Below, one piece after another: positions 1 through 64,000 of a stretch of 64,000 nt of DNA. The stretch lies in assembly GCA_022703585.1 (NCBI GenBank), contig JAKLDJ010000001.1, forward strand, positions 246,891-310,890, read 5' to 3'. The translations under genes and the position numbers were made by a program. A model generated the notes under the pieces. That model was not told the DNA's origin. It worked only from the letters and a program-made list of their open reading frames with translations, and did no database searches. The DNA comes from Candidatus Omnitrophota bacterium. GTDB taxonomy: Bacteria; Omnitrophota; Gorgyraeia; Zapsychrales; JAKLDJ01. Position 1 is the first letter of the stretch; every line of letters starts with the position of its first letter.

Positions 1-420
1 AAACCGGCAAGTTCTATGCTATGCCGGTTGGTGATTTCATAAAGTCCCGGCCAGGTCCCGATATTCGAAATAACCGCCGTTTTGCCCTTAAATTCTTTAA
101 TGCGCCGGGCTAAATGTTCAGGAGAAGAAAGATCTTCCTGATGCAAATAATAATCTTTTCCCGGAATGAGGCCGTTAAGCCTGAAATTCTCCTGCGCATG
201 AGACAACAATCTAAAGTCATTATCAATCAGATCAAACCTTGCCGCGCCTAACCGCCATGCCGCCAGCGCCAGGATTCCTTCTGCGCAGCCGGCATCAATA
301 ACGCGTTTACCGGCTAAATCACAATGGAGTATCGCCGCGATAGCGGAAGTCGTATAGACGTGATGGCGGTTTAAGGCAAATATGCATAAGTCGAGATCCT
401 GGATAAGAATAACGTTTCGG
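1..420 (-). CDS. SAM-dependent methyltransferase small domain (RsmC/PrmA-like). It is in the -1 frame relative to the giant ORF, has no in-frame start codon, is partial (runs off the window start), and is probably the C-terminal continuation of the giant ORF through a frame disruption.
   Basis: Translation: RNVILIQDLDLCIFALNRHHVYTTSAIAAILHCDLAGKRVIDAGCAEGILALAAWRLGAARFDLIDNDFRLL...IKEFKGKTAVISNIGTWPG. Motif I is VIDAGCAEG. The frame has an in-frame TGA at 469-471 upstream and no ATG/GTG/TTG start between that TGA and the domain. The giant frame ends TAA 372-374 inside this domain. Confidence 0.55.
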
Positions 421-39400: not shown

Positions 39401-42400
39401 ACGGAAAGGTAGAATAGCCCTTTTGTGAGAACTTTCGGTATGGCGGTTCTATAAATTCTGCGCCGGCAAAAACAGGTTTGTTCGGCGCGTTTGAGTTCTG
39501 ATTCTTCCTTAACTGTTCCAGTAAGCCTAATTTGACAAAAAGCCACAGAAGCGTCACTGCCCCCGTGGCTACGATAACCGGCAACAGAGAATTAACCGTT
39601 TCTCCGTCTTCTTTGTTTATTTTATCACCGACCGGCTCGGTTACGAAAGTATTTAATAACAAATTTTTACGGTTGACCGCGTTCAAGTCGATAACAAAGA
39701 TTGTCCGGCGGCTTGTCCGTTGTTCTATCAGCGACTCAGCGAGCTCGACATCAACCCAGTTGTATCGATAATTTCCGGCTTTGGTTTTCCCTTTAAAAAT
39801 CCCGACTTGAAGAATCAGCGACCAGGCTGAGTCAGGGATATAGAGCAACAAAATCTTTTGACCGGCATTCTCCAGCAGGGTTTCCAAGGTGTTGCGGCGA
39901 GCGCTGTAGCGCGTCTGGGAATTTAAACCGGTCAAGACAAGGCGCTTTTTCGACGACCCCAGAGAGATGACGCCTTTGGCGCCGACACGAAGGAATGAAT
40001 TCTGATGAAGTTCTTCGTCAATCTGACGAATGGATTCTCTGGTATCCAGGCGCTTTTTTCGCCTGTTTTGATCTGCGCTGATTCTGTAAATCTTGCTCCG
40101 TTTCTGAGCAACCAGCACCAAAAGGTCATCCAGGAAAGGATACCCCGCATATTGGGCCCGCATCTCTTTTTCAAGGCGCGTTAAACTATCTAAGCAAGAC
40201 GGGATATTAGGAAGAAGCCTCAGTCTAAGAGCCTCCGACTGGCACACCGAGCGGGCGACAGCATCCCTCTTGGCGGCTACGGCCGCGGCAATTCTCTCAT
40301 CCGTCGCGATATCCCGATAGCCGGGGATTTTTAACAATCGCTCAACAGTGTCTATCGTTCTTGGCTCATCGGGCCGCCGGCTGATACGCCTGGTCAAAAC
40401 AGAAATCCTTCTTTCTTGCGCCTCTCTCATCTTCGCCTTGAGCAGATCCTCCTCGGCACGGGCTAATTTATTTTGCTCGATCAAATCCTGTATCGAAAGG
40501 TCATTTTCTGCCAGGAAAATAAAGGCCGGATCACTATCTATAAGACGTTTGATCTCCTGCATGCTGGTACCACGGCGCAAACCGCTCTTCAGAAATCTCT
40601 TAAGCGGTTTGGCATAAACCCCGACGATAAACGCAACCTTCTTTCCGGCGGCCTGTCTTACGTTTTCGCGGGCGGCGACAGAACTGTAGCGGCGGCCATT
40701 AAGCCATCGTGATATCTTCATCACCGAGGCCCATTCGCCGGAAAGCCGGTTCATGCGCGTAATAAGCTCAGATGCGAGCGCGTTTTGTTGCTCATCGTCG
40801 GTAGCGGTCATAGCCAAGGATGGGAACACAGACAGGGCCACAATCACGGCATTAAGATCGACCATGAAAAGGCCCAAAAGCCTGCCCTCATCTTCCGCAA
40901 GACCCCGCGATCCATTTGTCCGGTCCGTTGTCCGGGGGGTCAATTTTTGCAGCAAGAGCAGCGGATTGACAACAATACCTTTGGTCGACAACACTAATTT
41001 ATCGGCGTACCGGCAGACCAAGAAAGCCGCTGCGGCCAATAAAAACAGTGTGCCGACCGGGAACTCAAGGCCAAGAAGACTGCGCAAATCGGAAGAACCT
41101 GTTTGCTTGAGTTTCACCCCGAAGGCGCCTTCCCGAACATGGATAACCATGGATTCCCGGTCAGAACACGCCGTATAATACCCCTGGCTGTTTAATGGTT
41201 TTGGAAATCCAGCGGTTGTGCCGTAATGGACTAAAACCCGCTGATCATTTTGTTTAGCATGAACAAGCGCACCAACGGCGAGATTTCCCTCGGCTTCTTT
41301 ATAGAATTCAACAAACGACATCAGCGTTTGATATTCCTTATCGGTCATCGCCCACTCGACCGCAACAGGGTTATAAACAGTCAGGACATCAGCGGGTTTA
41401 TCTGTAAGCGTGCGCATAGTTGCATATTTTATGGCGCCCTGTTTACCAATTTTTACTTCCGTAATGCGCGGCCACAGGTAACTATGTACATATCGGTAAT
41501 AACCGTCGCTCAATAGCTCTTCTTTAAGCGACCAATCCAAATACTTTCGTTCGATCAAGGCGAGAGGCACAAGCACCACCCCCGTATCTTCTCCCGCGTA
41601 AATCTCATTGGCTATATCCAGGACAAACTCTTCACCGGCCAATCTGACAATGATATAGTTAGCTAATTTAATCTCCGTCGTGATTTCAGAATTAAAAGCA
41701 GAGATCATTTTATGCCGGAAACCATGCCGGGATAATACCTGCGAGACTTCCCTGGCTGCCCTATAACTGCATTCAGGGAAACTGGAATCGTGTTCCTTAA
41801 GATTCTCCCGAACGGTTTTAAGCTCTCCTATAAGAGCCTCGAAACGCGCCAGCTGCTCTTGTTCATACGGATTAAGCTCCTTTCTCTTTAACCACTCAAG
41901 GATAACCGTGTACCAAGGAGCAAACCAATTTTTCTCTGCCATCGCTTCGATATTTAAGAATGACTGGACGGAGAATTTGTATTCGCGCATAAAGCTGGTC
42001 GGGATAGCAAAGAATCTATCTTCCGTGCTCAGGAAATCTTCTACCGCAGCCTGTTTGTCCATTTCAGGCGTAAACGCCGCTGCCATCCGCTTTAAGAATT
42101 CACGTGTAACACTTTCCGGAAGACGTGACTTTTCTATAAAATCAGTTAGTGTTTCTTTCTGATAGGAAATCTCCCGGTCAAGCGTACTGAAATGGCGGGG
42201 AGTCAGAATATTGTGGAGACGGTCGGCTGCCTTGACAATATGCAGATATTCGAGTAAAACCTCAACCCCGCCGTATTCTTCCAGGTCAAGGCCAGCTAAA
42301 AGACCGGAGAAATATTCCAGGCCATTGACCAATCTTTCGAGATATTGTTCATTAGACTCATCCTCGCCCTTAGTAAGCATCTGAATCCCGGCGACAATAA

Positions 42401-45400
42401 TCCGGGCGGTTTTTTCAGAACAAACAGCCTCTAATTCTTTCCTGACCCGCTCCAGCAGTTGTTCAGGCGTGCTAAATTGTTTTTTAAGTCTTTCATGCCG
42501 CACCGAATCCTCTCTCATCGTCTTATAGTATTCTTTGAAATATTCTTCAAGGATATCGTGACCCAGCGCCCAGGCGTCAACAATAGCCCTCATCCCGTCC
42601 TTGTTTTTGACCCTGGTATCATTTTTAATAAGCCGGCCGACATCAAACGCATTAAGTAGAATATACAGCACGCTGACCGGATGAAATATATAGGGCTCGC
42701 CGTTATCCCGTTTTAACCCTGAGTGAACGGTACGCGCGATCCTGAACATGGCCCCGGGAACTTTAAGATTAACATGAGGCCAGGTTTTCTTAAGGACATA
42801 GCGATAATGCGCATACTTTTCATTAATAAAACGACGGCTATAGCGTGCCGAATTTTTCTGCCATAAAGAAACCCTGCCAAACACCTGTAAACCCGCGTGG
42901 TACGTCTGCACCCTGGTTTCAACCAAGGGGCCGCTTAAAATGCGGGTCATCAGCCATGAATCAACCCCTTTCTCCGAGGTGCCTTCAAGTATTCCGCCTT
43001 CCTTTAAAAGATCAATGTAAATACCAAAAATGAAGTTGGCAACGAGCGGCCCGTTTGCCCCCGCTTTTAACTCATGCTGATATTCCGATAGGACATAGGT
43101 AATCCAGTCAAATTTATCTTTTTCATTGGTTATTTTCAATTCAGTTAAGGGTGTATCCAGAATATGAATATGCGCTTGTATTTCGGGCTTTAATTGAAGT
43201 TTCCCAGAATCAGTAATATCAAACAAGTTTTTAAGGCGCCTATCACCCTCATCCGTTAACGGCCTATCCTTACCCGTAACCCAATGAGCAGCGTAGGGGT
43301 TTTTAAATCCACGATTGACCGCGTTTTGGTCCGGGGCGGTGACGTACATCTCAAAGGGTAAGCGGGCTTCCCAGAGCAAGGCCGCCAGACGTTGGGCTCC
43401 AAAAATATGGTATCCGTCCAGATAGCGCGCGCCGCTGTCAACGAGAATCTTTAATGTCTTCTGGCCGTTTTTCCTGGTCTCGAGCCATTGTTGCACCATA
43501 GGAATAGTCACCTTACGGCGGTGCTGATAAACACCATCTTTCCGGTTCAAGAAGTACGGTGCCTTGACGGTTTTACGGCTATAGCGGTAAACCTTGAGGC
43601 GGAAAATAAGATTTCTTACCTTTTGTTGATGGTCTAAAATCCGTTCGCGTACCAACTCAGCGTTTCTCATTGTGTTAAACGGATGGGAATCCAGGAGCCT
43701 TACCGCGAACGATTCCATCATAGTCACAACAGCAAGTACCGTCACCACGAACGGAAATACGAACACGTGCACGCCGTCTGTTTCTTCGGGTGACACGGAG
43801 GCAGCTGATGTCGTTTCCTTTGTTATCGCTATCCGTTCGTGATCGAGCTTATTCGGCATAAATGTCGATTCAATAATGACCGGTTTGGGAAGCTCACCTA
43901 TGCCTGCGTCGATCCACATAAGATCAAAGCAGCCTTTGACTTCCAAGTCAACAATGATGCCGGATGCCTGAAGCCTCCTGGCCAGATATCGAAATCCCTC
44001 CGATAATACCCTGTCCACGCCCTCCACAAACTCGTCCGCGCGTTCCGGCGGGACAAGGCCTTGCCAGAAAGGATCAAAGACATGCGGCCACTCTAAAAAT
44101 CCGGAACGATTCCTCCCCGTGATATTGGCAAAAAAGGCGGAGCTGCCGATCTTGGCCTCCCATCTGTTCTTGAGCAGGACGGCATCGCCTGTTAATAAAT
44201 TGCCGGACATGTGATGACGGGTTTCAAGGGCCCTGCCGTTGTACCTTATGGTGCGGACAATCAGCTCTATCATGCCGGGGTTATATAAAGAACGTGGGGT
44301 ACCTGGCGCCACTGAAATCAAAGCGTGCAGCGCATTTAATACACCCGCCACATTCACCTTATCGGCATCGATATTGATTTGAATAATATCTTGTTCCTTG
44401 TTAACCACTATCTTTGATTTATTAACCCCCAGTTTCTTTGCCAATTGCGGCATCGTAAGTCCGCTGAAACTCTCCGGCTGAGGATTAAGCGCCATGGTAA
44501 CCCTCCAGGCGCGGTTTCCTTCTTTTTCTAAGAAAAAGACTCCTCTTCCCATGCCTCCGGTGTTTGGCTTATAGACAATCGCCGACGCCATCCTACCACC
44601 CAGTATCTTTTCGATGGCCTGATCAAAATCAATGACATCGTCGGGATTGATAAACTCTTTCCCGGGAGTCCAGTCTTGGATCTCAAGGCCTAATTCTTGC
44701 AGTTGGCGCAAAACCTGCGGTCTATTCAGGAGGAAAAACGGCTGGGGCTGGCTGATCGGACCGTTTCTTAAAAGATGGCGCATGACATACTTTTGCCCGA
44801 GCATAAGACCCAGCTCGCCTCTGGTTAATAACGTTTGAGAAGTTAACAGCGGAAATGGATTTTCAACCCTCTCATCCGCCACTGACCCGTACGCGATGGA
44901 TACCGCCAGCATCCAGATCAATCCCAACATCTCCATCCCCGGCAAGCCGGCGAAGGCAAAAACCGCTTCTGGCAAGGATTCTTCAACGCGCTTGGAAACG
45001 ATTTGCGCCTTGCCGAAGAGTTCGGCAAATTGAATGCTGGCGTTCACCGGGCCGAACTTCGCCTCTTCGCCAAATAGATCGGTCGGCAGGAATCCTTCCG
45101 CCTTGATCTCCCGGCCTAAGAATAACGAAGCAGGAACCCATTTCATATCGTCGTTTTCTGCGGGATTTAGCTTAAGGCCTTCGACATCCTTTTTAACAAC
45201 AAAAAAGATGATCGGCGAAACGACGCCTTGGCTATCGGCGGTCAAGTATTTCCCCAGGCGTCCAAGCACATGGCCGGCAGTGAGCGATAGGCTTAATTCT
45301 TCGTTCAGGCCGCGCAAAATAGCCTCAAGCGGTTTCTCCAGGGCGTTTTCTTGCCCGTTTTCTTCTCTTGTTTCCGACGGGAAAACCCAGTACGCGCCGT

Positions 45401-48400
45401 AACGGCGGGCATCGCTTCGCCTGCGCACCAGCAGGACCTGCCATTCGCCATGATGACGGTGAAGTAGGATAGCCGAAGAGGCCTTGATGGTCGCGTTTTC
45501 CTCTCCTTCGATCGGCGTAATAACGGGCAGGCTCAAAAGAAGCCTGCGCAATTCCTCTAAGAGCGATTTTTGAATGGCCTCTTCTCTGCTCTGGGCCATC
45601 GCAAGGAACTCTCTGGAACATCGGCTCATTTCCGCGAGGAATCTTTCAAAACCCTGATCCGAAATCCCGAGCTTTAATTTCAATTCCTTAAGCGATTTGA
45701 TTTCTTTAGATTTAAAATTTTTAAAGACTTCTGACTTTTCAGCATCCCATGTCAACCCGGCCGTAGCTAACGCCCTGGCCTGGGTAACGGCAGAGGAATG
45801 TCTCAGCATATCGCTGTCTGCCGCTTCTTGTATCATGGGCAGAGATTCTTCATAACACCTTCGCATCCCTGCGAGGAATCCGGTAAAGTCTTCATCCGAA
45901 AGCCCGGGCTTAACAGACCTGAATATCCGGAGCACTTCTTCGAGCGAGCGAGCATCTTCAAGAGCCTTTGCTATTGCCGGAGTGTTCGGAACCCGGATTG
46001 ATCTCAAATTATGCATCCGGGCCATAATAGTCGAGTTTCTCAGAGCCTTTAATGTCATTTTCTCATCCGCCGCATCGGACGAGGCATCATCGGCCTGGGT
46101 TACCATCCCCAGCCCTGTTAGAAATACAGCCATTGAAAAATGTGACAGCATTTCTAACGGGGCTAGCGCCGCACAGAGTAAAGGCAGCGCTTCCCCGCCC
46201 AGCAAAATAAATAAGGACTCGACCGCCGGCAGGGCAAAGGCAGCTAAATGCTCGCCGATTTCGCTAAATTCGCCATGTTCAATGATTCTTATAAAATCCG
46301 TAAAGCTAACATTCGAGGCAACATCCGGGTTTTCCACCACATAAATCCCCGTGCCCCAACGCTCGACACCGTCAAATTCTCCGTCAACGATGATTTTGAG
46401 ACCAGGCAAGAAAAAGATCCGCTCATGGAACACCGGGAGACCGCGCAGGATCGCATCGACGGGTTCAATGACATAGCGCGTTTGCGGCTTTGCCAAAAGA
46501 CCAAGAATATTTGTCGGCTGCAGATAGGCGCTTAAGACAGCGGAGAAACTATCCGGGCGGAAGAAACGGGATGCTAACTTTGTTCTTAAGATCGCCTGGC
46601 TTAAGATCCCGCGCACAGCCAGGTCCTGGGCATACATGACATACCGGTGTAATATATAATCAGCCTTCCTGCTCTTGCCGATCCCTTTATAGACTTTTCT
46701 TAGTTGGAGCGTATCGAGCGCATTGACCCGTACCGCCGTCATCAAGGCGTCGATGCCCTGTTTTCGATATTGACGGTTGGCATCTTTGAATTTCCTGTTA
46801 GCTGTCTCGACAAAATTATCCATGATATCTATGCCGATCAAGCGGATCTTCCAGTACTCGGATTTTTTCCTGCCTGCGACATCTTTTATGGCCTGAGCGG
46901 CAAAGGCCATCATTTCAATAGCCTCGTTGGGCGAGATCCCGAGGCCGATGGTATAGATCATTAAGCGACGGTTTCCGGCCGCCTCTTTAGTTCGGACAAC
47001 TCTTTCCAGGTCTTCCTTGATAAGAAATGCCTGGCGTTCGAGGTCGCCTCTGAAACCTTCAGCCTGGCCAAAAAGAGAAAGAAGATACGGTGTCTTTTGG
47101 ATGGCATCGACAACATCGGCTTCGGAATATCCCAGCGCCAGCAATTCATCTAATAGGCTCGGGGGGATTCGGATAATATCATTTGTGATTTTCGCATGGC
47201 TGTGACCGACCGGGACGATAACACACATCTCTTCTCCGGCATCTTCTCTAACTGCCGCCATCGTGACAAAGATCCACAACGGTAACAACGGTAGGACAAA
47301 CGCCCCGACATTATCACCCTCCGTCGACGACGCCCTTTGTTCGGGCATCAGACGGACCGTGCCTGACTTAAAGGGCACGGCGGGATTTTCGGAATTAGAA
47401 AATTCTCTTTGCAGAAGAACTTCATAGCCAAGACCGGCCGTTTCAAACAGCTTTTCCCAAATTTGGAATCTGTTAAAATAAACCGCAAACACGGCAAATC
47501 CTGCCGGCGTCAAATGGCCGGGAAGGCTTTTTAAAATCTCCTGCAGGCGGTCAGTATTGATGTGGTACCTTAAGTCAAATAAAGATTTTCTTGCCGGTTC
47601 GGGCGCATTCCAGAGAATGACATCGTATTGCCCCAGGCCTTCTAATCCGTTGTGGATAAAAGTATTGGTTCCTGTTGTAAAATTGTTGAGGTGCAGGTTA
47701 TCACGTGTCAGCCAAACAGCGTCTCCGTTAATATCAATCGCGTCAACGTGATTGGATTTTATCCGCGCGGCGATCACATCAATACCGTTGCCGCATCCGA
47801 TAACAAGCACTTTGTCATCGGATTTGAGCAAATCATACGCCTCTATTGTCCTTGTAATGCGCAGCGACTCGAACCCGCGGGCGGTGTCTTCGTTAGTGAA
47901 CGTCGTATAAACAGTGGGCCGCTGGATTAAAGAATACGGCCTGCCGAAGATAGTGATGGTTACCGCGCCGCCTCTCTTTTCGGACGCACCCGGATACCCG
48001 TCCGATACCAGAGCCAATACTGTCTGCCCGAGCACCAAAAACGCCGCGGAGAAATCCGGAAGGAAGGCGTAGGCGCGGTCGGCCTCTGCCGACGCTAGGA
48101 CGGTCTGTGTTTTTTCATGCGCCAAGACAAGAATCATTAAAAGGGCTGCTGCGGTTATCGTTCCCCCCAGTCCGTCCCACCAAAGGTGGGACGAGATCTC
48201 GCCGGAAAGCAAGGAATTTCCCCCACCAGCCACGGAGAGGTTGAAAATTCCTTGTTGATGCTTTCCGACGGACCACGGAGAGGTTGACGATATAAAGGAC
48301 GTGAGTCCTTCCCGCAGCAGCCCGAAATCTATCGCTAACGGTAATCCCAAGCTTGCCTGCAAAGCGCCATCAGTGTTATTTCCATTTCCCTGACCCATCG

Positions 48401-57400: not shown

Positions 57401-60400
57401 AAAGCGTAAAGCTATAAAGGTGTTCGCCGCGGGCATTGAATTCTTCAGCGGTTAATTTACCGTTAAGGTTCAGCCCCTCGACGGATTTCTGCCAGTAGTC
57501 AAATGAATCACCGATGACGGAGCTGTAAACCTTATTGAGTTCGCTCAGGGCGCGGAACAACGCGACAACGTAATTATTGAAACCGACTAAGCGTAAAGAC
57601 CTTAGGATCCTTGAAATCCTTAAGAAATTGTGGTTCGTTTCCGATAACCAGATCTGACGCCGCTCTTCAAATCTCGAAGACGGCTGTATGCGCACCTCAT
57701 CATTTTCAACGCTGTATTCGAACCCGTAGAAATTAAGCATCAGGGCCAGCGACTTGAGCATGTTTTCCCTGAGTAATTCTCCTACGGGCGAGGACTCACG
57801 GAATACCTCTAAAGTTTCTCTCGTAAAGATAGGCCCAACAAACCTGCCTCCCAGACTGACACCATCAAGCCTTATATCCCATTCAAATATTTCAGAACTT
57901 TCTTTGAGAGGAAATAGCAATTGAATGTAGTTATGTTCGGTTTCTAACCGTTCGTCATCGTATCCCATAGCCGAGTCATCACCGTATCCAAAAACCTCAA
58001 AAATATATCTTCCTTTATGGTCAGGCCCGATCCCCTGGTAGAAATCGATCAAGGGTTGATTGATCCCCGTGAAAGGCCATCGCTCTTCCTCCACCGTCAT
58101 GGCGGTTAAGGCCGCAAAAACCATCTGGGCGAAGATGCCGAAGAATATTCCAAGCCCGCTAAATCCATAAATCACTTCAAATTCACCCTTTTGGGCGGTT
58201 TTGCGCACGACCCTACCCTGCAAAGCGGCTTTACCCACGACCCTACCTTGCAAAGTTGTTTTCAAGATAGCGGCCTGTTCGCTACCGGCATTCGCCAGAG
58301 AAAAAGGTTCGCCTGCGGTCACAATCAAGTCCGAGAAAAGATAGGCACCCGGTTTCATCATCGCGATACTTTCACGAAGCTCGTATAATTCTCGGTCGTT
58401 TAGGTAGCGCGTCACATAATTAAGGAAGATCATGTCCGCCTCTTTGATCGCCTCTAATGTTTTCTGCGCCGTAACGTCACCGGTGACGAATTGGACCATC
58501 TGACTGCCGCATATACGCGGCAAGGAGGCTGATAAAAATTCGGCAATCCATGCCTTCATAGCCTGATAGTGCCGACTGACAATGTTATCTTCAATGACTT
58601 CGGGTAAGTGACGATCTTTTCGTTCGTCTAATACATAAATAACATCCTGAGGCTGAATGTCGCTACGGCCAAGAAGCTCTTGGGCCATCGCTACATACCT
58701 GCTATCTTTGTCTATGCCCGTAATACGCACCTGCGGAAGATCTTTTGTCGGGTCATAACGCTCCGGGTAACGTTCAAACTGATGCAAAATAGTGAGGGCA
58801 ATCGATAGGGCTTCATGGCCCTTTGAGCTGCCCAGGGAAAGGACGCGTAACGTTCGTCTGCCTTCTTCGCGGGACTGCTGCACAATTCCCGGCAAACGCT
58901 TTTCCAAAACAATGAACTGGGCCGGCAGCCGGAAAAACGATGTGTGATGTTCTATATCGGGCTTTGCCTCTCCCGTCATCGCCGGCAAGGCCAGAGCCAG
59001 TTGCACAAAAACGCTGAAGAACACACCGAAAATATCAAACCCGCACAAGGTATCAGCTGGAACAGTTTGGGCATCAGTCGCCGAGACCCAAAGAATTTCT
59101 TCGTCAACGTCAAAGCGGTAACCCTTGCCATCCGGCAATGTCAGGCGCGCATCCATATATCGGAGAATACGCGGGATAATACTCTGGCGGCGGTCTTTGT
59201 CCGGCAGAACGGCTGCCACCAAATGAAGCATTTCCTCTCGCGATAGGGTTTCATGAATAAAGCGTATCCGTTGCACCTCCACCGGATAACCCCAGGAGCG
59301 AATCTTGTCTTCGAGATTGGTCGCCCGGCCCTTGGGGACAAAGGAATGCTTTTCCATAAGAGTAGACCGGACAGCGACCTGGTTTCTGGCGGTGGGGATA
59401 TTGCCGTTAAGCACAATCGCCAGGCGCCCGGCTTTATCAATGAGCGGCAATACTTTCTTCTTTAAAAGCAGGTCGCGCTGATCGAAGGGAACAAATAATA
59501 AGGAATGCGACATCACGATCCCGTGCAATTTCTGCCCTCTTAAAACATCAATCTTCTCAAAGAAACTTCCGGTAATAACACTCAGCCCTTCGATCTCTCT
59601 GGTTTTAATCACGGCGGCCCGCCCGGAGTCTTTCTCAATCGCCAGCACTTGATCAAAATGGACAGCAACCCGTTCGGTAATCTCACCGGCACCGGCCCCT
59701 AAATCAAGTAACTTTCGCGGAGACGGCACCCCGGTAAGGAATTTATCAAACCCTTCGGATAGCCGCTGGCCGATACTCCGTTTTTCTACGCTTAATAACC
59801 TCTGGCCTGCCTTGTTCATTTGCTGCCAGTCAAAATATTTAATCGGCTCTTCGCTGCCTTGCGGCTGCCCTATCATCCCCATCATCGCCGGTAACGCCAA
59901 AAGAACAGAGAACGGCAGCACGACCATACCTATTGGCAACAGGGCCGCGAGGCCTGCGTCTCCCGTCTCTTTGATTGGGCCTTGGCTGTTCGTCACACGC
60001 GCCGCAATGCCGCCATTCTGCGCGCGTTGTTCCTGCTGATCGAGCCCAAGAATATAACGGATCGTTGCAATCTGGTCAGGATCGGTAATCCCAACGGTAT
60101 CTTGTGCGTATTGTTCAACCACAAATTCGCGCCCTTGAGGAGCAGTAACCTGCAATTTCTCGGCATGACGATCGATAAATACAAGCACCACCTGAAATCC
60201 GCTGCCATCAATCATCTGCAATGCATCAGCAATCATATAGGCGGCTTTCAGCCGCGCAGCAACCGTTGGCAGGTGCCGATACATGTCGCGCAAGAGGGCA
60301 ATCATGGTAAAATCATGGCTCGGTAGCCGGCTGCGCATAACACGCTCATAATCTTCGCGTTTGACAATCCATGGAATAGAAAGAGTCTCGGCAACCTCCC

Positions 60401-63400
60401 ATGAAACAAAGTTGGCAAGTGCCTCCTTGACTTTCTCGTACAGTCCGGCAATCTCAGTGTATTCATCGTCAGTCAGCCATTGGGAGATTTGCGGAAATTC
60501 CCAAGTATGCGGATAGGCCGGATTTTCACAGAGAAGGTCGCTGAATATTTGCCGTAAGGTAACCCCGCGTGCTTGACGTAATACCTCATCGATCGCGGCA
60601 ACAGCAAACCCATTCTGGTTAATCAAAGCATCCCGGTTGACAAAAATTCCTCGCCATGTCCTCTCCATCAGGTCCCATAATTGTTCGACATATTGATAGG
60701 GAAGTTCCTGTGCCTGTTCTTCTTCCTCAGTCAGCAGCCCTCCGTTTTCTGTTTCTGCGCGGTCAACGGTGATATAGACGCGTTTGTGAATAATCTCAAT
60801 AATGCGCGCAAAAGCGTGAGAGAGCGTTTCACGGTGCGTATGATACGCTTCATTGCGGGCAATGACCGCCTGTGGCGTAAAGAAAACAACACTGCCGATG
60901 CCTTGATCCGGATAGCGGATGAGCATTGAACCCATCGTCTGCCATGTTTCGCGTGGGGCACTTACCTTTGCATCCACACAATTACCGACACTTGAGCGGA
61001 CCATAACCTGCTCACCGGGCGCAAAGAGGCGGCTTTTCTTCTGTGCAATGTCCTCATTAACCGTGCCAAAGCGATATGCCCGGTATATCGTCTCTGCCTT
61101 TATGCGCTCAATAAGATAATCGCCGTGACGGATAACAACAAGCGTATAGTGATTTTGTATGTGAGCCGGCTCAAGGATAGTGACACGCCGACCGGTCAGC
61201 GGCTTGATGCGTTCTCTCATTGAAGTACGGCCACCGTATTGGATATAAGCTTCTTCGCCCTGTTTGAGCGTATAGACAGATTCATCGCGAGTGAACACAG
61301 ACCGCTGATCAATAACAAGCTCAGGCAGTTTAAAGAGGGCAAGCAGGCTGTTGATACGTGCGATCTTCTCAGCGCTAAACTCCTCAAACGATCCATCAAG
61401 TAAGCAACGCAGTTCTCGTGCCGCTGCCTGTTTCCCTCCGTCGTTGGCCACCGCGCCCAGGACACCGGGCAGGGCTAAAATGAGTTGGACGAGAATACTC
61501 ACCAACTCAAGGCCGGGAATGAGAGCGAGCGCGTTACTATTTTCTGCCTCCAGCACTTCCTGTTTAGTCCTGCTCAATTTTCCGTAAACATTTTCGGGAA
61601 TGGATTCAAGCAAGGCAACCACCTCTTCCTGCGGCATGACTTGAGGCGAAGTTAAATTGATATTGACCGTAGCTAACCCTTCGCTTTCAAGCCACTGATT
61701 TATTCTCTCCAGGTGGTCATCGGGCGGTATAAAGGTGCGCATCAGCCTTCTGGCGTCGAGTGTTGCCTGGTTGATTCCCAATCTCTCTAAATCTTCAGAA
61801 TCCTGCGGGTCAACGACCAAACCAAAATCTTCCCAGGCAGTCTGCATTCTCTGCGCCTTGGTTAATGCCTTTTGGCCGTCGGTACCCCAGAACTGCATCA
61901 AAACGGGATTACCGGTAAATGATTCCGGCAAGGATCCGGCCGTATTCTCTGTAAAACCAAACACCCAGGAATCAATGGTTAACCGTTCGGGGTCTAAGCC
62001 GAAACCGTAGGACTTCAACTTCGGCTCGGTACCCGAAGGACGGAAAAGAATAAACCATCTTCTTCCTTCTTTCTCAAAGATAAACATGACACCGTCGCCG
62101 GTAAATTGAATATCGAGAAGAGAATCAATGTCAACTTTAGGGAAGCGCTGGATGAATACGTCTTTTAACTTCTCCTCTCCTGTCTGATTAAGCCTGGCTT
62201 GATATTCCTGATCAAAGATATCCCTTAAAATGACTTTGGCCTCTGCCAGAGTAAGCTGCTTTCTCATATAGGCAATAACAATGGATAAGTAGGCACCGAA
62301 GATGCGCAGCTTCTTGCCATTCCCCTCGATCTCTTTTCGCTTTGCTTCTTCCGAAGTTCCCGGCAAGCTCAAGGCATTATCAAAACGGATATCGATCGGC
62401 GTGTCGATCTCATCACGCGCGTAGATCTCTTCAAGATAAACGGCTAAATCAACATCGCCTTTTTCTCTCTGCAATTTAGAGATCAGGGCCAAGGATAAGA
62501 ATATGGATTCAGTGGCGCTCTTTTCTCTTTCGGCCAGAAAAGAATTGCCCAAAAGATCCTGGAAGCTGTAGGTAATGCCGGTGATGATCCCGCCGCTTTC
62601 TTCCCAGGCAGCTATAATAATAGGGTCGGGCCCGATGTTAACGTCTTTGCCGCTGGCGTCGGTAATCACAACGTCTTCGCCGGGGAATTGCCTCATCACG
62701 CCTTCAGCGCGGTACATCACATTAGCCAATTTGGCAAAGCCAACGGCCGTGTTGATGACCTCTATTCTGTAGCCTTCAGCCTTGCGCTTTTCTGCCCATT
62801 TATCAACGGCCGGCGTGGATGCTAACGTTTTTAAGACAACCATGGTTCTGTCTTTGGATACCTTCCCCTGTTTCATTAAGGTCGTGATCCGCTCGAAATT
62901 CATCTCGTGCAGGAAATGGAAAAACTTATTGGGAATAAAGACCGCGACCAGCTTTTCGTTGCTGACAACATTATAAATAACGCCCAAAGCTTCCAGCAGA
63001 CTCCTAACCTGAGGAGAATTAACCATAACCTGACTAACATAGAGACGGTCATTATCCATGTCGGTATGCAAAACAATATCGCCGACGGGCATGGCCCGGA
63101 AACGCTCGGGGTAATCGGCTGTGCACAATACCGGGAAATATTTCACAACTTGGCCGTTGGATAAAACTCTCTCTTGCACCTGGGTGCCGTCAGCGCCTAA
63201 ATCATACGGTTCCGGCCTGCCGTTTTTGGGATTCTCGGAAAGCTTTCCGATATTGCCAAAATCAGGCCGTTCCTTCGGATGCATCCAGTCAATCCTTCCC
63301 ACCAGCTCATCCAGGCCCATTTCTCTAAAGAATGCGGTTAATGTCCGATAGGCCGAGCCGTGGGCACAATCGATATGAATCTTGGCGGGACCAATGGCCC

Positions 63401-63746
63401 TGACTAAGGCCAAAACCACTTCATCGGCAGCAGTCTGTTCCTGATATTTGCGGTACACGTGCATTCCGTTATGAGTCGAACGATACAGCTGGTCGGTAAT
63501 TCTGGGGTCATCCTCGGCAGAAAGATAGAAATCAACAAAGCCGTCCCGCTGAATCTTCTCAACAATGGCCCTTTGGATGGCAATCATCGCCTCAATGGTA
63601 CTGATCAAGAATTGGCTGCCTTCATAATCCATGATCTTTAAGCCGTCAACATTGCTGGGCGAATGAGACGATGTTCCGCAGAATGACAACACAAAATTGA
63701 AGAACTTGCCCATCGTAGAAGTATTCCAGATGGCGGTTGCCGCATT
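372..63746 (-). CDS. giant multi-modular ORF: one uninterrupted minus-strand reading frame of about 63.4 kb (>21,000 codons); stop TAA at 372-374; frame open upstream to TGA at 63747-63749; first in-frame ATG at 63711-63713; probably continues further 5-prime via a frame disruption
   Basis: Hand reverse-complement translation at about 26 anchors (plus 2628, 3252, 4512, 6921, 8043, 8355, 8724, 10545, 11184, 13512, 14808, 18384, 20229, 23094, 26919, 30000, 35175, 38448, 42696, 47780, 50490, 53496, 59958, 62000, 63000, 63500). All give protein-like sequence with recognisable motifs in the same frame (codons on plus positions 3k..3k+2), with no stop at any sampled site. All ~40 minus-strand ORFs in the supplied track are in the other two frames and no long ORF is listed, which fits one uninterrupted frame. 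The frame terminates at TAA 372-374. Confidence 0.6.
1250..1700 (-). other. module: second HExxH zinc-peptidase-like motif region
   Basis: ALLHETVHALGAGFVYLRA verified at 1441-1500. Confidence 0.35.
3190..3300 (-). other. instance of the recurring linker motif (double hydrophobic segment)
   Basis: MSCVILFFTFWSLADLSAVFGLWSLVLLPASAFAGLLSLVEAGPLMLLPVFLSVGGM verified. Confidence 0.6.
3262..3288. repeat. heptanucleotide tract (CCAAAGA)x3 inside the coding sequence; encodes VFGLWSLV
   Basis: accaaagaccaaagaccaaagacc. Confidence 0.6.
4440..4515 (-). other. instance of the recurring linker motif
   Basis: EASDAGRLGAFVPLAGLSLVFSLWPLALVPLAGI verified. Confidence 0.6.
4461..4498. repeat. imperfect heptanucleotide tract (CCAAAGR / CTAAAGA), ~5 units, inside the coding sequence
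   Basis: ggccaaaggccaaagactaaagaccaaactaagacca. Confidence 0.5.
4520..4900 (-). other. module: second minimal nucleotidyltransferase domain
   Basis: LYLFGSLSRAPTPVDADADIFIDAPGTDMDAW; its coding DNA located at 4693-4790. Confidence 0.45.
5650..6650 (-). other. module: glycosyltransferase family 9 (heptosyltransferase-like)
   Basis: GNDCGLTHVAAAVNAPKIISLFGST; its coding DNA located at 5651-5725. Confidence 0.5.
6880..7300 (-). other. module: bacterial sugar transferase (WbaP/EpsL-type polyprenyl-phosphate glycosyl-1-phosphate transferase C-terminal domain)
   Basis: SGLIGKFLRLTGLDELPQIF(NIIKGEMSFFGPRP) verified at 6921-6990. Confidence 0.55.
7990..8046 (-). other. instance of the recurring linker motif
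   Basis: DDTIAAFLPASALLGLFGLIEAGSATR verified. Confidence 0.6.
8560..8760 (-). other. module: minimal nucleotidyltransferase (Pol-beta superfamily) domain
   Basis: NISFFGSYLYSAHPRDLDILVVVEGRILTALD verified at 8641-8740. Confidence 0.5.
10250..10700 (-). other. module: M48-like zinc metalloprotease (HExxH) embedded in hydrophobic segments
   Basis: LILGHELAHTTEKHHVVSL verified at 10501-10560. Confidence 0.5.
11120..11190 (-). other. instance of the recurring linker motif
   Basis: DGDSVAAFLPASALLGLFGLIGLALSAVEGAGL verified. Confidence 0.6.
11250..12400 (-). other. module: polytopic membrane domain, possibly O-antigen ligase/polymerase-like
   Basis: Multiple long hydrophobic stretches read by eye; assignment weak. 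Confidence 0.2.
13440..13515 (-). other. instance of the recurring linker motif
   Basis: TPLAAFLPFADFNFVFSLWSLVCLPLAGM verified. Confidence 0.6.
13457..13484. repeat. imperfect heptanucleotide tract (AGACYAR)x4 inside the coding sequence
   Basis: agactaa agaccag agactaa agacaaa. Confidence 0.5.
13560..14950 (-). other. module: uridine kinase/phosphoribulokinase-family P-loop kinase domain
   Basis: DSPTKVILVIGGASTSGKTHLAKELQ...FVMNYDYMDVERHDAEAREHILEAYYDRTIDVIIYEGIGT verified at 14580-14810. Confidence 0.55.
18250..19000 (-). other. module: sigma-70 family sigma factor-like domain, copy 1
   Basis: RAFLTHVVAKHLPRLPKKEQYVVRRYYLEGMTLKTIGESLGVTESRACQIHAKAIER verified at ~18270-18440 (region 4 HTH); region 2-like FDSSRGASLKTWIIGILRPRMIDQARL. 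Confidence 0.55.
19030..21110 (-). repeat. in-frame tandem array of 8 divergent copies of an ~83-97 aa HTH-like unit (DNA period 244-292 bp), immediately N-terminal to sigma-like module 1
   Basis: DNA anchors gagtcaacggatt / ggtcaaggggtgatt recur at 19139, 19391, 19640, 19884, 20146, 20436, 20728 and 21010. The unit encodes ...LLALAKQHFDAI.DPNDWPKNPLT..IM.EL.L..NSVQYYSKKMN..L.AAGYPKIGR... Confidence 0.6.
22221..22300 (-). other. instance of the recurring linker motif
   Basis: EDSTSELACLFMPFMVLPVSMALAGMTQAEH verified. Confidence 0.6.
23035..23100 (-). other. instance of the recurring linker motif
   Basis: FLMPLVFLPVSAFAGLSEAGP verified. Confidence 0.6.
24800..25200 (-). other. module: GHKL/HATPase_c-like ATPase domain
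   Basis: G-box-like GSHGRGVGIPLSRLIVEVHDGTLEI read by eye. Confidence 0.3.
26000..26700 (-). other. module: class I SAM-dependent methyltransferase
   Basis: QNDRMVVADVGSGAGQISEWLY verified at ~26555-26620. Confidence 0.5.
26830..26925 (-). other. instance of the recurring linker motif
   Basis: EAAEALGAFMLVADLNLVFGLWSLVLTSLA verified. Confidence 0.6.
26863..26890. repeat. imperfect heptanucleotide tract (AGACCAA)x4 inside the coding sequence
   Basis: aagacca aagacca gagacca aagacta. Confidence 0.5.
27150..27750 (-). other. module: trypsin/chymotrypsin-like (S1) serine protease domain
   Basis: HRDSGSICSDRVETIPGDSGSPLVI verified at ~27200-27270 (GDSGxP Ser motif); upstream TATHVVC His motif read by eye. 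Confidence 0.55.
28250..32350 (-). repeat. divergent tandem ~90-100 aa repeats (RAARF...IVGAWFG...PHW.EALD units) on both sides of sigma-like module 2 (29450-30120)
   Basis: Protein-level repeats read by eye. Example DNA similarity: 30580-30625 against 28333-28380. Confidence 0.35.
29450..30120 (-). other. module: sigma-70 family sigma factor-like domain (regions 2-4), copy 2
   Basis: GWEGVQQALTTYDSSRGMSL verified at 30000-30059; region-4 HTH LGPREQHIIRSLRAGVTQRAIARELGVSEFVMCRLRQAIIERLR verified at ~29500-29640. Confidence 0.55.
35131..35180 (-). other. instance of the recurring linker motif
   Basis: SEDNALGCYLLFIGIP verified. Confidence 0.5.
36100..36190 (-). other. instance of the recurring linker motif
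   Basis: APDDFKEDLLCTLGLWTGLFFISLLGA...VKPAAEQEKLSP verified at 36061-36200. Confidence 0.55.
37300..38000 (-). other. module: HD-domain phosphohydrolase
   Basis: ELHDLGKDSPRRFAIHDGTDV located at 37731-37800. Confidence 0.45.
38348..38450 (-). other. instance of the recurring linker motif, with an embedded heptanucleotide tract
   Basis: GILLPLADVSNLFSLWSLVFSLWSPSFLPLT verified. Confidence 0.6.
38378..38412. repeat. heptanucleotide tract (AGACCAR)x5 inside the coding sequence; encodes the LWSLVFSLW part of the linker motif
   Basis: gagacca cagacta aagacca gagacca aagacta. Confidence 0.6.
38600..38960 (-). other. module: class I SAM-dependent methyltransferase
   Basis: DRAQPLNILEVGAGALQLSRRLLREF verified at ~38880-38960. 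Confidence 0.5.
42250..42700 (-). other. module: RelA/SpoT-type HD domain ((p)ppGpp hydrolase-like)
   Basis: GLKRDNGEPYIFHPVSVLY verified at 42661-42720; downstream ALGHD and VKAADRLHNILT match the SpoT HD and ADRLHN motifs. Confidence 0.5.
45050..45500 (-). other. module: Nudix hydrolase-like
   Basis: Nudix-box-like ETREENGQENALEKPLEAILRGLNEELSL read by eye; not re-verified against DNA. Confidence 0.25.
47350..47950 (-). other. module: methyltransferase small domain (RsmC-like)
   Basis: IGCGNGIDVIAARI verified at ~47775-47815; downstream DVILWNAPEP, a variant of the NPPF/Y-like motif. Confidence 0.45.
50441..50500 (-). other. instance of the recurring linker motif
   Basis: SAVMPGMELFVFAALLGAI verified. 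Confidence 0.55.
50500..51620 (-). other. module: sugar-nucleotide NTP-transferase (nucleotidyltransferase) domain
   Basis: AYRHSLIRGEWAVLIPAAGD(ARRLGLGKPKALL) verified at 51601-51660; Gly-rich NTP-transferase signature. Confidence 0.45.
52000..52700 (-). other. module: class I SAM-dependent methyltransferase
   Basis: HLVLDFGMGLFP motif I; its coding DNA gcccatgccaaaatc located at ~52515-52530. Confidence 0.4.
52900..53700 (-). other. module: tRNA-dihydrouridine synthase (Dus) TIM-barrel domain
   Basis: LYAKAAAVASQIGVSAIDINMGSGPLAD verified at 53461-53550 (DINMGCP-like motif); downstream PVSVKTRI...IPIFGNGEV. Confidence 0.55.
56140..56710 (-). other. module: Maf-like nucleoside triphosphate pyrophosphatase domain
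   Basis: VILASQSPRRKEILD verified at ~56665-56710; downstream IIIASDTTMLVDGNVIGK. Confidence 0.5.
56865..56946 (-). other. instance of the recurring linker motif
   Basis: AFMLFMPPVFVLAIFLGMTT verified at 56881-56940. Confidence 0.6.
58170..58965 (-). other. module: CheR-type methyltransferase-like domain
   Basis: RTLRVLSLGSSKGHEALSIALTILHQF resembles the CheR SAM-binding region RIWSAGCSTGEEPYS. Read by eye, not independently re-verified. Confidence 0.3.
58203..58258. repeat. 30-bp direct tandem duplication inside the coding sequence; encodes ALQGRVVGKA / ALQGRVVRKT
   Basis: cacgaccctaccctgcaaag at 58206-58226 and cacgaccctaccttgcaaag at 58236-58256. Confidence 0.6.
59055..59870 (-). other. 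module: class I SAM-dependent methyltransferase
   Basis: Motif I VPSPRKLLDLGAGAGEI verified at ~59690-59730. Confidence 0.5.
59874..59960 (-). other. instance of the recurring acidic-flanked hydrophobic linker motif
   Basis: TGDAGLAALLPIGMVVLPFSVLLALPAMM verified at 59881-59960. Confidence 0.6.
61440..61545 (-). other. instance of the recurring hydrophobic linker motif
   Basis: EVLEAENSNALALIPGLELVSILVQLILALPGVLGAVAN verified at 61441-61560. Confidence 0.55.
61990..63746 (-). other. module of giant ORF: alpha-D-phosphohexomutase (PGM/PMM/GlmM family)
   Basis: Active-site region FCGTSSHSPSNVDGLK (~63650) and C-terminal signature RPSGTEPKLKSYGFGLDPERL verified at plus 61981-62040. Confidence 0.6.
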
Positions 63747-64000
63747 GTCAGGAACCACATGGCAAACAAATCCCAGGGCAGCAAGGGTCCGGGCGGTAAT
63801 AGCCTGGAAGAGATTGCTGTGATACCGTACCTCATGGCCGTAATTCGTCTGATAAGGGAAGTACGCTCCCTTGTTATAAAGAATCTTCACCATAAGGCCT
63901 AAGGATAACGATGTCAGCAGCCTTTCAAAAGAATTCTTAATAACCCGGGTATCGTGAATATCGGTAATATTCATCGCATGCCTGATACCGGCGATCGCCA
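63638..64000 (-). CDS. 5-prime continuation of the giant ORF in a different frame. It encodes the N-terminal part of the phosphohexomutase (PGM/PMM/GlmM-like) module, ends at TAA 63638-63640, overlaps the main frame, and runs off the window end.
   Basis: Translation in frame +2 reads ...IHDTRVIKNSFERLL...ITARTLAALGFVCHVVPDNAATAIWN. The main-frame sequence TSTMGKFFNFVLSFCGTSSHSPSNVDGLK continues it (SASHNP-like active-site Ser motif). Protein-level continuity across the junction implies a 1-nt frame disruption near 63715-63725. Confidence 0.5.

Follow-up and report, generated by a model that had tools for sequence, protein, structure and literature searches.

A giant multi-enzyme open reading frame of Candidatus Omnitrophota with a recurring hydrophobic element between its modules

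Introduction

Giant open reading frames (ORFs) studded with enzyme domains are among the least understood bacterial genes, and whether their products work as one chain or are cut is the central question of the literature on them. Here we analysed a stretch of 64,000 nucleotides from a Candidatus Omnitrophota bacterium (assembly GCA_022703585.1, contig JAKLDJ010000001.1, positions 246,891 to 310,890), in the following called the window. It is filled by a single reading frame encoding at least 21,332 amino acids (aa), and a recurring hydrophobic element of about 30 aa, here named the punctuation element, lies between the modules of the encoded protein. An initial annotation of the DNA had proposed that the fusion of normally separate enzymes into one polypeptide implies either processing or a scaffolded mega-complex. 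The same alternatives are debated for the Omnitrophota giants (West-Roberts et al., 2023, 10.1101/2023.11.21.568195).

ORFs longer than 20 kb were described in most genomes of several Omnitrophota classes (Seymour et al., 2023, PMC10066038). The 'Archaeovorins' of West-Roberts et al. (2023) are giants rich in glycosyltransferases, methyltransferases, peptidases and NUDIX domains with many transmembrane (TM) segments; the authors raise the question of cleavage and state that information on where it would occur was lacking. A catalogue of 916 Omnitrophota proteins of ≥10 kaa (thousand aa) lists as class 1 the 'multi-enzyme metabolic clusters' (Nielsen and Lui, 2026, 10.64898/2026.06.07.730766). 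In this catalogue 94% of the proteins bear TM segments or a signal peptide (SP) and are read as membrane-anchored.

A continuous reading frame fills the window

Frame -3 of the minus strand contains no TAA, TAG or TGA over 21,332 consecutive codons, the first of which is 63998..63996. Each of the other five frames of the window has 648-1401 stops (3-6.5% of codons), and the longest closed ORF in a listing of those with at least 150 aa does not exceed 203 aa.

1..64000, minus strand: continuous ORF of 21,332 codons, open at both ends, with Pfam matches along its full length

The co-encoding of many normally separate enzymes in one uninterrupted frame, as stated by the initial annotation, was thereby confirmed. 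The fusion had been placed between 42250 and 64000, a bound that does not hold: the same ORF continues to position 1. The interval 64000..42250 corresponds to aa 1 to ~7250 of the encoded protein, whose length is 21,332 aa or more, and the lower boundary of the interval is biologically meaningless because the HD domain located there runs to ~42144 and the ORF fills the window. The whole stretch is one fragment of a giant mosaic gene, and 64000..42250 is its N-proximal third. GC content by codon position is 0.56/0.40/0.53 and the amino acid composition is ordinary. Embedded RNA families, tRNAs or ribozymes were not detected in the window. The ORF is all that the window contains, and no taxonomic marker gene is present. 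The GC skew of the plus strand is negative in 30 of 32 bins of 2 kb, the coding strand being G-rich. The GC content of the window is about 50%, versus 44-46% in three related loci.

For domain identification the translation was tiled in pieces of 1000 aa and scanned against Pfam, followed by sequence searches in NCBIfam and PDB. About 25 distinct families were found over the whole ORF, and only methyltransferases dependent on S-adenosylmethionine (SAM; about 8) and sigma-70 modules (2) recur. In the chain about 30 modules, each the size of a protein, are strung together, and some of them are exchangeable cassettes that also occur in other giants.

A recurring hydrophobic element lies between the modules

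The punctuation element is a newly noticed and apparently undescribed feature of this giant; such a motif is mentioned neither by West-Roberts et al. (2023) nor by Nielsen and Lui (2026). In its copies, of which there are at least 25-29, an acidic linker is followed by the pattern [LVI][AG][AC]F.P, a Pro-rich hydrophobic core, GM[TV] and again acidic residues. The copies and related variants are located as follows, all on the minus strand:

59841..59945: punctuation element, aa 1352
57339..57443: punctuation element, aa 2186
56862..56966: punctuation element, aa 2345; the Maf-Dus homology starts ~7 aa after it
50418..50522: punctuation element, aa 4493
47226..47330: punctuation element, aa 5557
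46077..46271: compound punctuation element, aa 5910-5974
43689..43793: punctuation element, aa 6736
58956..59057: variant hydrophobic element, aa 1648-1681 (...LALALPAMTGE)
61443..61532: similar variant hydrophobic element, aa 823-852
58083..58187: similar variant hydrophobic element, aa 1938-1972
1896..40859: about 21 further elements, at aa 7714, 8532, 8999, 10156, 10274, 11256, 12368, 12727, 13073, 13611, 13900, 14248, 15723, 16823, 17597, 18262, 18644, 18899, 19488, 19822, 20234 and 20667

In a profile of 25 copies anchored at the Phe (position 0, Phe itself in 18/25), D or E is found at -5 in 16/25, L, V or I at -3 in all 25, A or G at -2 in 17/25 and A or C at -1 in 23/25, and Pro stands at +2 or +3 in 12 and 9 copies, respectively. 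The tail consists of a hydrophobic stretch ending in L-x-G-M-[TV], followed by acidic residues. The core pattern occurs 18 times, compared with 1.2 ± 1.1 times in shuffles preserving local composition (maximum 6, n = 500) and twice in the reversed sequence. The element profile gives 21 forward matches of ≥5 bits and none in the reversed sequence. Several elements were paired independently by blastp, and the statistical weight for the element rests on the explicit pattern count and these BLAST pairings. The elements at aa 18644 (7997-8059) and aa 17597 (11138-11200), both with ...AAFLPASALLGLFGLI..., share 94% DNA identity over 63 nt, which implies that the element itself was duplicated or gene-converted recently. 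Elements of a long variant (VF[SG]LWSLV) are likewise alike at the DNA level (repeat families D5 and D7).

None of 29 elements lies inside a domain match, where 4.6 would be expected. Taken over all hydrophobic segments, the median distance is 348 aa, about as long as a typical bacterial protein. In aa 1-7250 the units delimited in this way are, in order, the phosphohexomutase (PGM), a unit without assignment, the class I methyltransferase, the CheR methyltransferase, OGFr_N, a second unit without assignment, Maf-ARMT1-Dus (possibly with a methyltransferase and the nucleotidyltransferase-like region), the MTS methyltransferase, a third unassigned unit, NUDIX and HD.

The cores comprise 11-31 aa with 7.8% Pro, versus 4.4% protein-wide, and both flanks are acidic. 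The conserved N-terminal part of the core is retained even where the hydrophobic stretch is only 11-13 aa. By Kyte-Doolittle analysis the protein has 37-46 hydrophobic segments, several of which have cores that a canonical TM helix would not have, being very short or very rich in Pro. For 37 segments the positive-inside rule did not point to a uniform orientation (18 with the C-terminus inside, 10 with the N-terminus inside, 9 tied). Because hydrophobic TM-like elements separate nearly every module, the giant protein would be membrane-associated, as are 94% of the published giants. The modules had been described as normally separate cytosolic proteins; separate enzymes are indeed fused here, and the presence of TM-like elements between nearly all of them speaks against a simply cytosolic protein. 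An AlphaFold2 model of aa 2180-2390 from the single sequence was unusable (mean predicted local distance difference test score, pLDDT, 47.6).

Known sorting and cleavage signals (prepilin, PEP-CTERM, GlyGly-CTERM, PGF-CTERM, LPXTG and lipobox) were considered for the elements and rejected, as ten of the best elements with their flanks gave no such match at E<=10 in NCBIfam or Pfam. The elements have no Glu at +5 and no basic cluster past the core. One hydrophobic segment that does not follow the motif (aa 13438-13473, window ~23580-23687) has a lipobox-like LLNGCAG at its end, and the residues after it are rich in Pro.

Other long homologs bear private recurring hydrophobic elements of their own, namely P0019 and P0005. 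In P0019 three FEG...F.PAL.SV.AG segments were observed. P0005 (OVE77190.1, 'bacterium F11', 5,904 aa) has two near-identical GFLVAHHYMANGVSLW... segments and two prepilin-like ones (...SAFTLIEVLGVLAIIGL...).

Domain modules of the N-proximal third

All ten domains listed by the initial annotation were recovered in the given N-to-C order by the Pfam, NCBIfam and PDB searches, seven or eight of them above the curated Pfam thresholds (gathering threshold, GA). The motifs quoted for them are present as well (HNYIQLLFPL at aa 2022, EPYIFHP at aa 7101, ALGHD at aa 7144, ADRLHN at aa 7258). The ARMT1-like domain and the hydrophobic elements between the domains are additional to that list. The phosphohexomutase, the SpoT-type HD domain and the nucleoside triphosphate (NTP) transferase lie below the Pfam thresholds and appear as weaker calls, backed by NCBIfam and PDB. 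Apart from the Maf-ARMT1-Dus block, the following modules were identified, all on the minus strand:

62004..63851: putative divergent phosphohexomutase (PGM/PMM/GlmM-like), aa 50-665; Pfam, NCBIfam
59334..59723: class I SAM methyltransferase (DREV/Erm/KsgA-like), aa 1426-1555; motif I LLDLGAGAG
58671..58946: CheR-type methyltransferase, aa 1685-1776; Pfam CheR 44.7 bits, GA 27
57477..57959: OGFr_N domain with HNYIQLLFPL, aa 2014-2174; Pfam 61.1 bits, GA 22
50994..51647: weak UDP-sugar pyrophosphorylase/NTP-transferase-like region, aa 4118-4335; PDB 4bqh, PAAGDARRLGLGKPK loop
47499..47837: MTS/PrmA/HemK2-type methyltransferase (RsmC family), aa 5388-5500; Pfam MTS 32.3 bits, GA 23
45120..45476: NUDIX hydrolase domain, aa 6175-6293; Pfam PF00293 33.9 bits, GA 21.1
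42144..42767: RelA/SpoT-type HD domain, (p)ppGpp-hydrolase-like, aa 7078-7285; PDB, NCBIfam

Of the four domains of the phosphohexomutase architecture, the module matches PGM_PMM I, II and IV colinearly, each below GA (18.6, 13.4 and 13.8 bits), and NCBIfam Arch_GlmM with E=1.5e-7. Its phosphoserine-loop-like motif is TSSHSP, where the family loop is T(A/G)SHNP. The MTS-type methyltransferase also matches NCBIfam PRK14968 (43 bits). In the Nudix box GQENALEKPLEAILRGLNEELSL (GX5EX7RGLNEE; family GX5EX7REUXEEXGU) the EE pair is kept, RE is changed to RG and the final G to S. The top 12 PDB matches of the HD domain are all RelA/SpoT hydrolase domains (best E=3.2e-5), aligned at the quoted motifs, and the SpoT signature GEPYxxHP, HD and KxADRLHN occurs in order at aa 7101, 7147 and 7258. 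In NCBIfam this domain matches spoT_relA TIGR00691 with E=3.2e-6 (25.8 bits versus a cut-off of 499), and in Pfam HD/HD_4 with E~0.05, missing the threshold (HD_4 PF13328 13.9 bits, GA 27.2). The NTP-transferase is the weakest of the ten calls. The best PDB match of aa 4118-4335 is the UDP-GlcNAc pyrophosphorylase 4bqh (E=0.0045, weak) in two colinear stretches, aligning the nucleotide-binding loop PAAGDARRLGLGKPK with LAGGSGTRLGFDKPK (family G-x-G-T-R-L-(x)n-K); Pfam yielded nothing below E=0.1 for this region, the IspD N-terminus having E=0.13.

About 100 bacterial homologs of the OGFr_N module were found. One of them (P0036, 406 aa) combines OGFr_N (78 bits) with a macro domain, which binds ADP-ribose (99.9 bits). 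This fusion hints that bacterial OGFr_N may act on nucleotide or ADP-ribose derivatives, which would fit the nucleotide theme of this part of the giant.

The modules had been assigned housekeeping functions in nucleotide metabolism and stress response. This assignment could not be upheld, as the scores stay at the domain level and the NCBIfam equivalog cut-offs are far from reached (DusB 115 versus 293, Maf 105 versus 273 and spoT_relA 26 versus 499 bits), and the catalytic Cys expected of a Dus enzyme is a Ser in the Dus-like domain. Since the scores are far below the ortholog cut-offs, the modules are, by sequence comparison, best regarded as divergent paralogs and not as the housekeeping enzymes of the cell. 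Their catalytic motifs are mostly intact.

The Maf-ARMT1-Dus cassette

A Maf, an ARMT1-like and a Dus-like domain form a supermodule with conserved, colinear homologs (minus strand):

52854..56837: supermodule Maf - ARMT1-like - Dus-like, aa 2388-3715
56049..56708: Maf (PF02545), aa 2431-2650; Pfam 106 bits, GA 27
55056..55334: ARMT1-like domain, aa 2889-2981; Pfam ARMT1 30 bits
52785..53540: Dus-like domain (PF01207), aa 3487-3738; Pfam 125.8 bits, GA 20.4

It is colinear, with 25-42% identity, with seven homologs (L001, L002, P0001, P0003, P0004, P0008 and P0152). The closest loci belong to the Omnitrophota metagenome-assembled genome (MAG) UBA9636 (41.5%) and to a MAG labelled Planctomycetales (40%), followed by Endomicrobiales (34%), and both closest loci are themselves inside frames that are open across the entire fetched locus. 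Homology to the two closest giants (L001 and L002) is limited to aa 2388-3715, with unrelated flanks, and begins at aa 2388, ~7 residues past the element at aa 2345-2381.

The order Maf-ARMT1-Dus recurs in Endomicrobiales, Omnitrophota, "bacterium F11" and JGI metagenome proteins, and the complete block is free-standing in a 1,720-aa Margulisbacteria protein (OGH97602.1, 13 cluster members) without hydrophobic segments. Since the same order recurs in other proteins and free-standing, the block is one pre-existing cassette and not the result of three independent fusions. The stand-alone proteins (OGH97602.1; MBU1862905.1 from Omnitrophota, 3,499 aa; MBN1822679.1 from Endomicrobiales) have the domain order, the invariant motifs and the frequent Ser at the Dus Cys position in common with the giant. 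They occur free or in other large proteins and without hydrophobic segments, whereas in the giant the block is a cassette between two elements. P0019 (JGI, 4,526 aa) carries a PNP_UDP_1 nucleoside phosphorylase domain besides Maf.

Both Maf signatures are kept (VILASQSPRR at aa 2431 for the N-terminal ILAS.SPRR, KAGGFGIQ at aa 2609 for the C-terminal KAGAYGIQ), and an insertion splits the domain. The Dus-like domain reaches 115 bits against DusB TIGR00737, with a trusted cut-off of 293. The catalytic Cys of the D.N.GCP loop is replaced by Ser (aa 3503-3509, IDINMGSG versus IDLNAGCP in 1vhn), and across the Maf-ARMT1-Dus family this position is C, S or G. The domain is a Dus-fold flavoenzyme for which Dus chemistry is not assured. 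Class 2 dihydroorotate dehydrogenases use Ser. As the Ser of the Dus-like domain recalls these enzymes, its substrate may be other than tRNA.

An exhaustive HMMER search with aa 2001-3200 revealed no relative with more than 37% identity, single-sequence scans of genome and metagenome collections no close relative, and an alignment-based metagenome scan nothing closer than 30%. With no HMMER relative above 37% and the closest loci at only 40-41.5%, the lineage is poorly sampled.

The remainder of the reading frame

Downstream of the HD domain the same frame runs on to position 1 with two sigma-70 modules, two proteases, HATPase_c, further methyltransferases and glycosyltransferases. The features relevant here are, on the minus strand:

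29442..30146: FliA-like sigma-70 module 1, aa 11285-11519; Pfam
18207..18917: FliA-like sigma-70 module 2, aa 15028-15264; regions 2, 3 and 4 present, region 4 with 61 bits
27207..27614: trypsin-like protease (Trypsin_2, GDSGS), aa 12129-12264; catalytic motif intact
10191..10658: M48 metalloprotease (HELAH), aa 17781-17936; catalytic motif intact
18966..21185: array of about eight copies of a ~90-aa repeat, aa 14272-15011; 33-64% aa identity, DNA repeats D1-D4 and D6

The two sigma-70 modules are paralogous, and their best outside matches are ordinary sigma factors of ~255 aa with 38% identity. Both proteases are candidates for self-processing; in front of the M48 module, 4-5 hydrophobic segments form a cluster belonging to it. 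Further modules are a second CheR, HEAT repeats, a Bac_transf sugar transferase (95 bits) and GT9 (80 bits). Piecewise BLAST and a DNA repeat finder showed aa 1-8400 to be free of repeats and several repeats further downstream. The ~90-aa array lies directly N-terminal of the second sigma module and has weak HTH-like (helix-turn-helix) Pfam hints alone. Other duplications pair aa 10819-11214 with 11590-11959 and aa 9629-9750 with 9797-9917.

Comparison with known giants and related systems

By its repertoire the window gene matches the multi-enzyme giants published for Omnitrophota and neighbouring lineages (Archaeovorin or class 1). Class 1 proteins are defined by ≥10,000 aa, many Pfam families with none dominating, TM segments of ~2% of residues and a place in Omnitrophota (Gorgyraeia) genomes (Nielsen and Lui, 2026). 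The window protein has at least 21,332 aa and about 25 families without a dominant one. Of the Archaeovorin repertoire Bac_transf, GT9, at least 8 methyltransferases, Trypsin_2, M48 and NUDIX are present. Like the published giants, it is encoded by an ORF of tens of thousands of codons, its chain is tiled by many Pfam families with divergent, sparsely identified domains, and it contains methyltransferases, HATPase_c, HD, PGM/PMM, NUDIX, HEAT, peptidases and glycosyltransferases (PF08241 and PF02518 modules). Here, too, the distance from one hydrophobic segment to the next is a few hundred residues (roughly one putative TM segment per 370-600 aa), and the closest relatives of one window module sit in an Omnitrophota MAG. 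Archaeovorins additionally have glycosyl hydrolases, a SecA_DEAD helicase of divergent sequence and, at the N-terminus close to an SP, a C39/S8 peptidase, and their loci an adjacent T2SS/T4P-like (type II secretion system/type IV pilus) secretion locus and downstream PilZ genes (West-Roberts et al., 2023). Unlike in these giants, the 21,332 aa gave no match with E<0.01 to an S8 peptidase, SecA_DEAD, C39 or a glycosyl hydrolase, both termini of the protein lying outside the window. The sigma-70 modules, like the punctuation element, are mentioned neither by West-Roberts et al. (2023) nor by Nielsen and Lui (2026).

MARTX toxins (PMC6315884) resemble the window protein as very large polypeptides of unrelated effector modules in exchangeable cassettes, with a built-in protease that releases them. 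They differ from it by a length of about 3,500-5,300 aa, glycine-rich repeats and an InsP6-activated (inositol hexakisphosphate) cysteine protease, which cleaves after Leu in unstructured linkers, whereas the window protein has at least 30 hydrophobic separators, at least 4 times the length and proteases of the metallo- and serine type. RTX-like glycine-rich repeats and an InsP6-dependent cysteine protease domain gave no Pfam match in the window. Polyvalent proteins (Iyer et al., 2017, PMC5512222) combine 2-15 disparate domains per chain, including methyltransferases, peptidases and RelA/SpoT, and an embedded zincin-like metallopeptidase was proposed to separate the domains. In contrast to the window gene they are encoded by mobile elements, codelivered with DNA, much shorter and without hydrophobic punctuation. 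Phage or conjugation marker domains were not found in the window protein.

Pro-sigmaK with SpoIVFB and pro-sigmaE with SpoIIGA are examples of pro-sigma factors freed at the membrane by proteolysis, and viral polyproteins are likewise precursors. To these systems there is a functional analogy only, with no sequence relationship or known protease-site motifs in the window protein.

Is the giant protein cut at the elements?

We favour, with a probability of about 45%, the reading that the giant is a cut, membrane-pinned polyprotein. The gene would be translated as one polypeptide, and each element would pin the emerging nascent chain to the cytoplasmic membrane and double as a cut site yielding module-sized products. 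The proteases responsible would probably be the M48 and trypsin-like ones of the same frame, or else a membrane protease whose gene lies elsewhere. As a bacterial polyprotein, the giant would bring a fixed set of activities (nucleotide handling, methylation, glycosylation and regulation) to a single site on the membrane. Cutting is favoured because the N-terminal part of the core is kept where the hydrophobic stretch (11-13 aa) is too short to span the bilayer, and because the Pro-rich, doubly acid-flanked cores are unlike ordinary TM helices. It is further favoured since adjacent SAM methyltransferases, one element apart, would face opposite sides of the membrane in an uncut chain, since the FliA-like sigma modules, two complete ones, could work as sigma factors only once set free, and since two intact proteases are encoded in frame.

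Several points weigh against this reading. Cleavage is without direct support in this or any published giant. The profile found no copies of the element in other proteins searched (21 long homologs, 150 representatives, three related loci and a collection of 5.8 billion proteins), so that the element appears to be private to the lineage, and the elements matched no curated sorting, prepilin or leader model. When the profile was cross-validated on split halves, it exceeded the reversed control by a modest margin only. The core may also be conserved in part because copies spread recently by duplication, and not through selection for recognition. Finally, the gene ends and the neighbouring genes lie outside the window, and taxonomic assignment by homology rests on relatives with only 40-42% identity, one of them labelled Planctomycetales.

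The same observations may be explained by an uncut, membrane-tethered array of beads on a string, in which the elements would be anchors (re-entrant, hairpin or TM) that keep all enzyme modules together on one membrane surface as a scaffolded mega-complex. The elements do resemble anchors, most published giants are TM- or SP-bearing, HEAT repeats are present and no known cleavage motif was found. The Pro-rich, short cores (about 18-21 aa), acidic on both sides, fit a re-entrant helix-break-helix; such elements return the chain to the same face and would therefore solve the parity problem of the methyltransferases without cleavage. A pure anchor would not be expected to keep the N-terminal part of the core in stretches of 11-13 aa, sigma modules tethered in a multi-megadalton chain are hard to square with function, and the intact in-frame proteases would have no obvious role. 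We consider the uncut array the main rival, though less probable than cutting. The modules (ppGpp hydrolase, Maf, Nudix, methyltransferases, sigma factors and proteases) could also be exported to act on or in prey or host, similar to MARTX toxins or polyvalent proteins, with the elements serving translocation. This would agree with a literature that ties Omnitrophota giants to predation, reports one giant as up-regulated on prey contact, predicts the domains of published giants to be mostly extracellular and places secretion and pilus loci next to them. The repertoire also resembles host-takeover toolkits, and RelA/SpoT, peptidase and methyltransferase domains occur in polyvalent proteins. [quoted passage not shown]

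It is very improbable that the ORF does not represent one protein at all, i.e., that it is an assembly artefact, a decaying pseudogene or an operon-like array with internal starts. Its ends lie outside the window and giant ORFs are prone to assembly trouble, but a complete lack of stops, at 3-6.5% of codons in the other frames, is incompatible with chance or decay, the catalytic motifs are intact and the relatives are likewise embedded in contig-filling open frames. Internal initiation was rejected: a Shine-Dalgarno (SD) sequence with ATG is not enriched after the elements (5 weak cases in 44; baseline 5-7%). No 2A-like NPGP motif occurs in the protein, and the window lacks ribozymes, RNA families and tRNAs.

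A more far-reaching form of the favoured cut polyprotein would make the element itself the processing signal, with cutting at or beside [LVI][AG][AC]|F-x-P that yields some 30 enzymes and regulators of ordinary size, among them releasable FliA-like sigma factors, and with lineage-specific variants of the signal. We regard this form as doubtful.

Implications

The window leaves the classification of these genes unchanged, as it adds one more multi-enzyme giant. The recurrence of Maf-ARMT1-Dus, pre-assembled and common to giants and free proteins, supports cassette capture rather than random domain accretion. With the punctuation element there is a candidate boundary signal that is defined by sequence and found where modules and regions of homology end, and the question of cleavage or scaffold is therefore open to a direct proteomic or genetic test. 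For structure prediction, the elements also give a reasoned basis for dividing giants into units. If the far-reaching form were true, the element would be the sought-after processing signal of bacterial giant proteins, with a private variant in each giant-bearing lineage.

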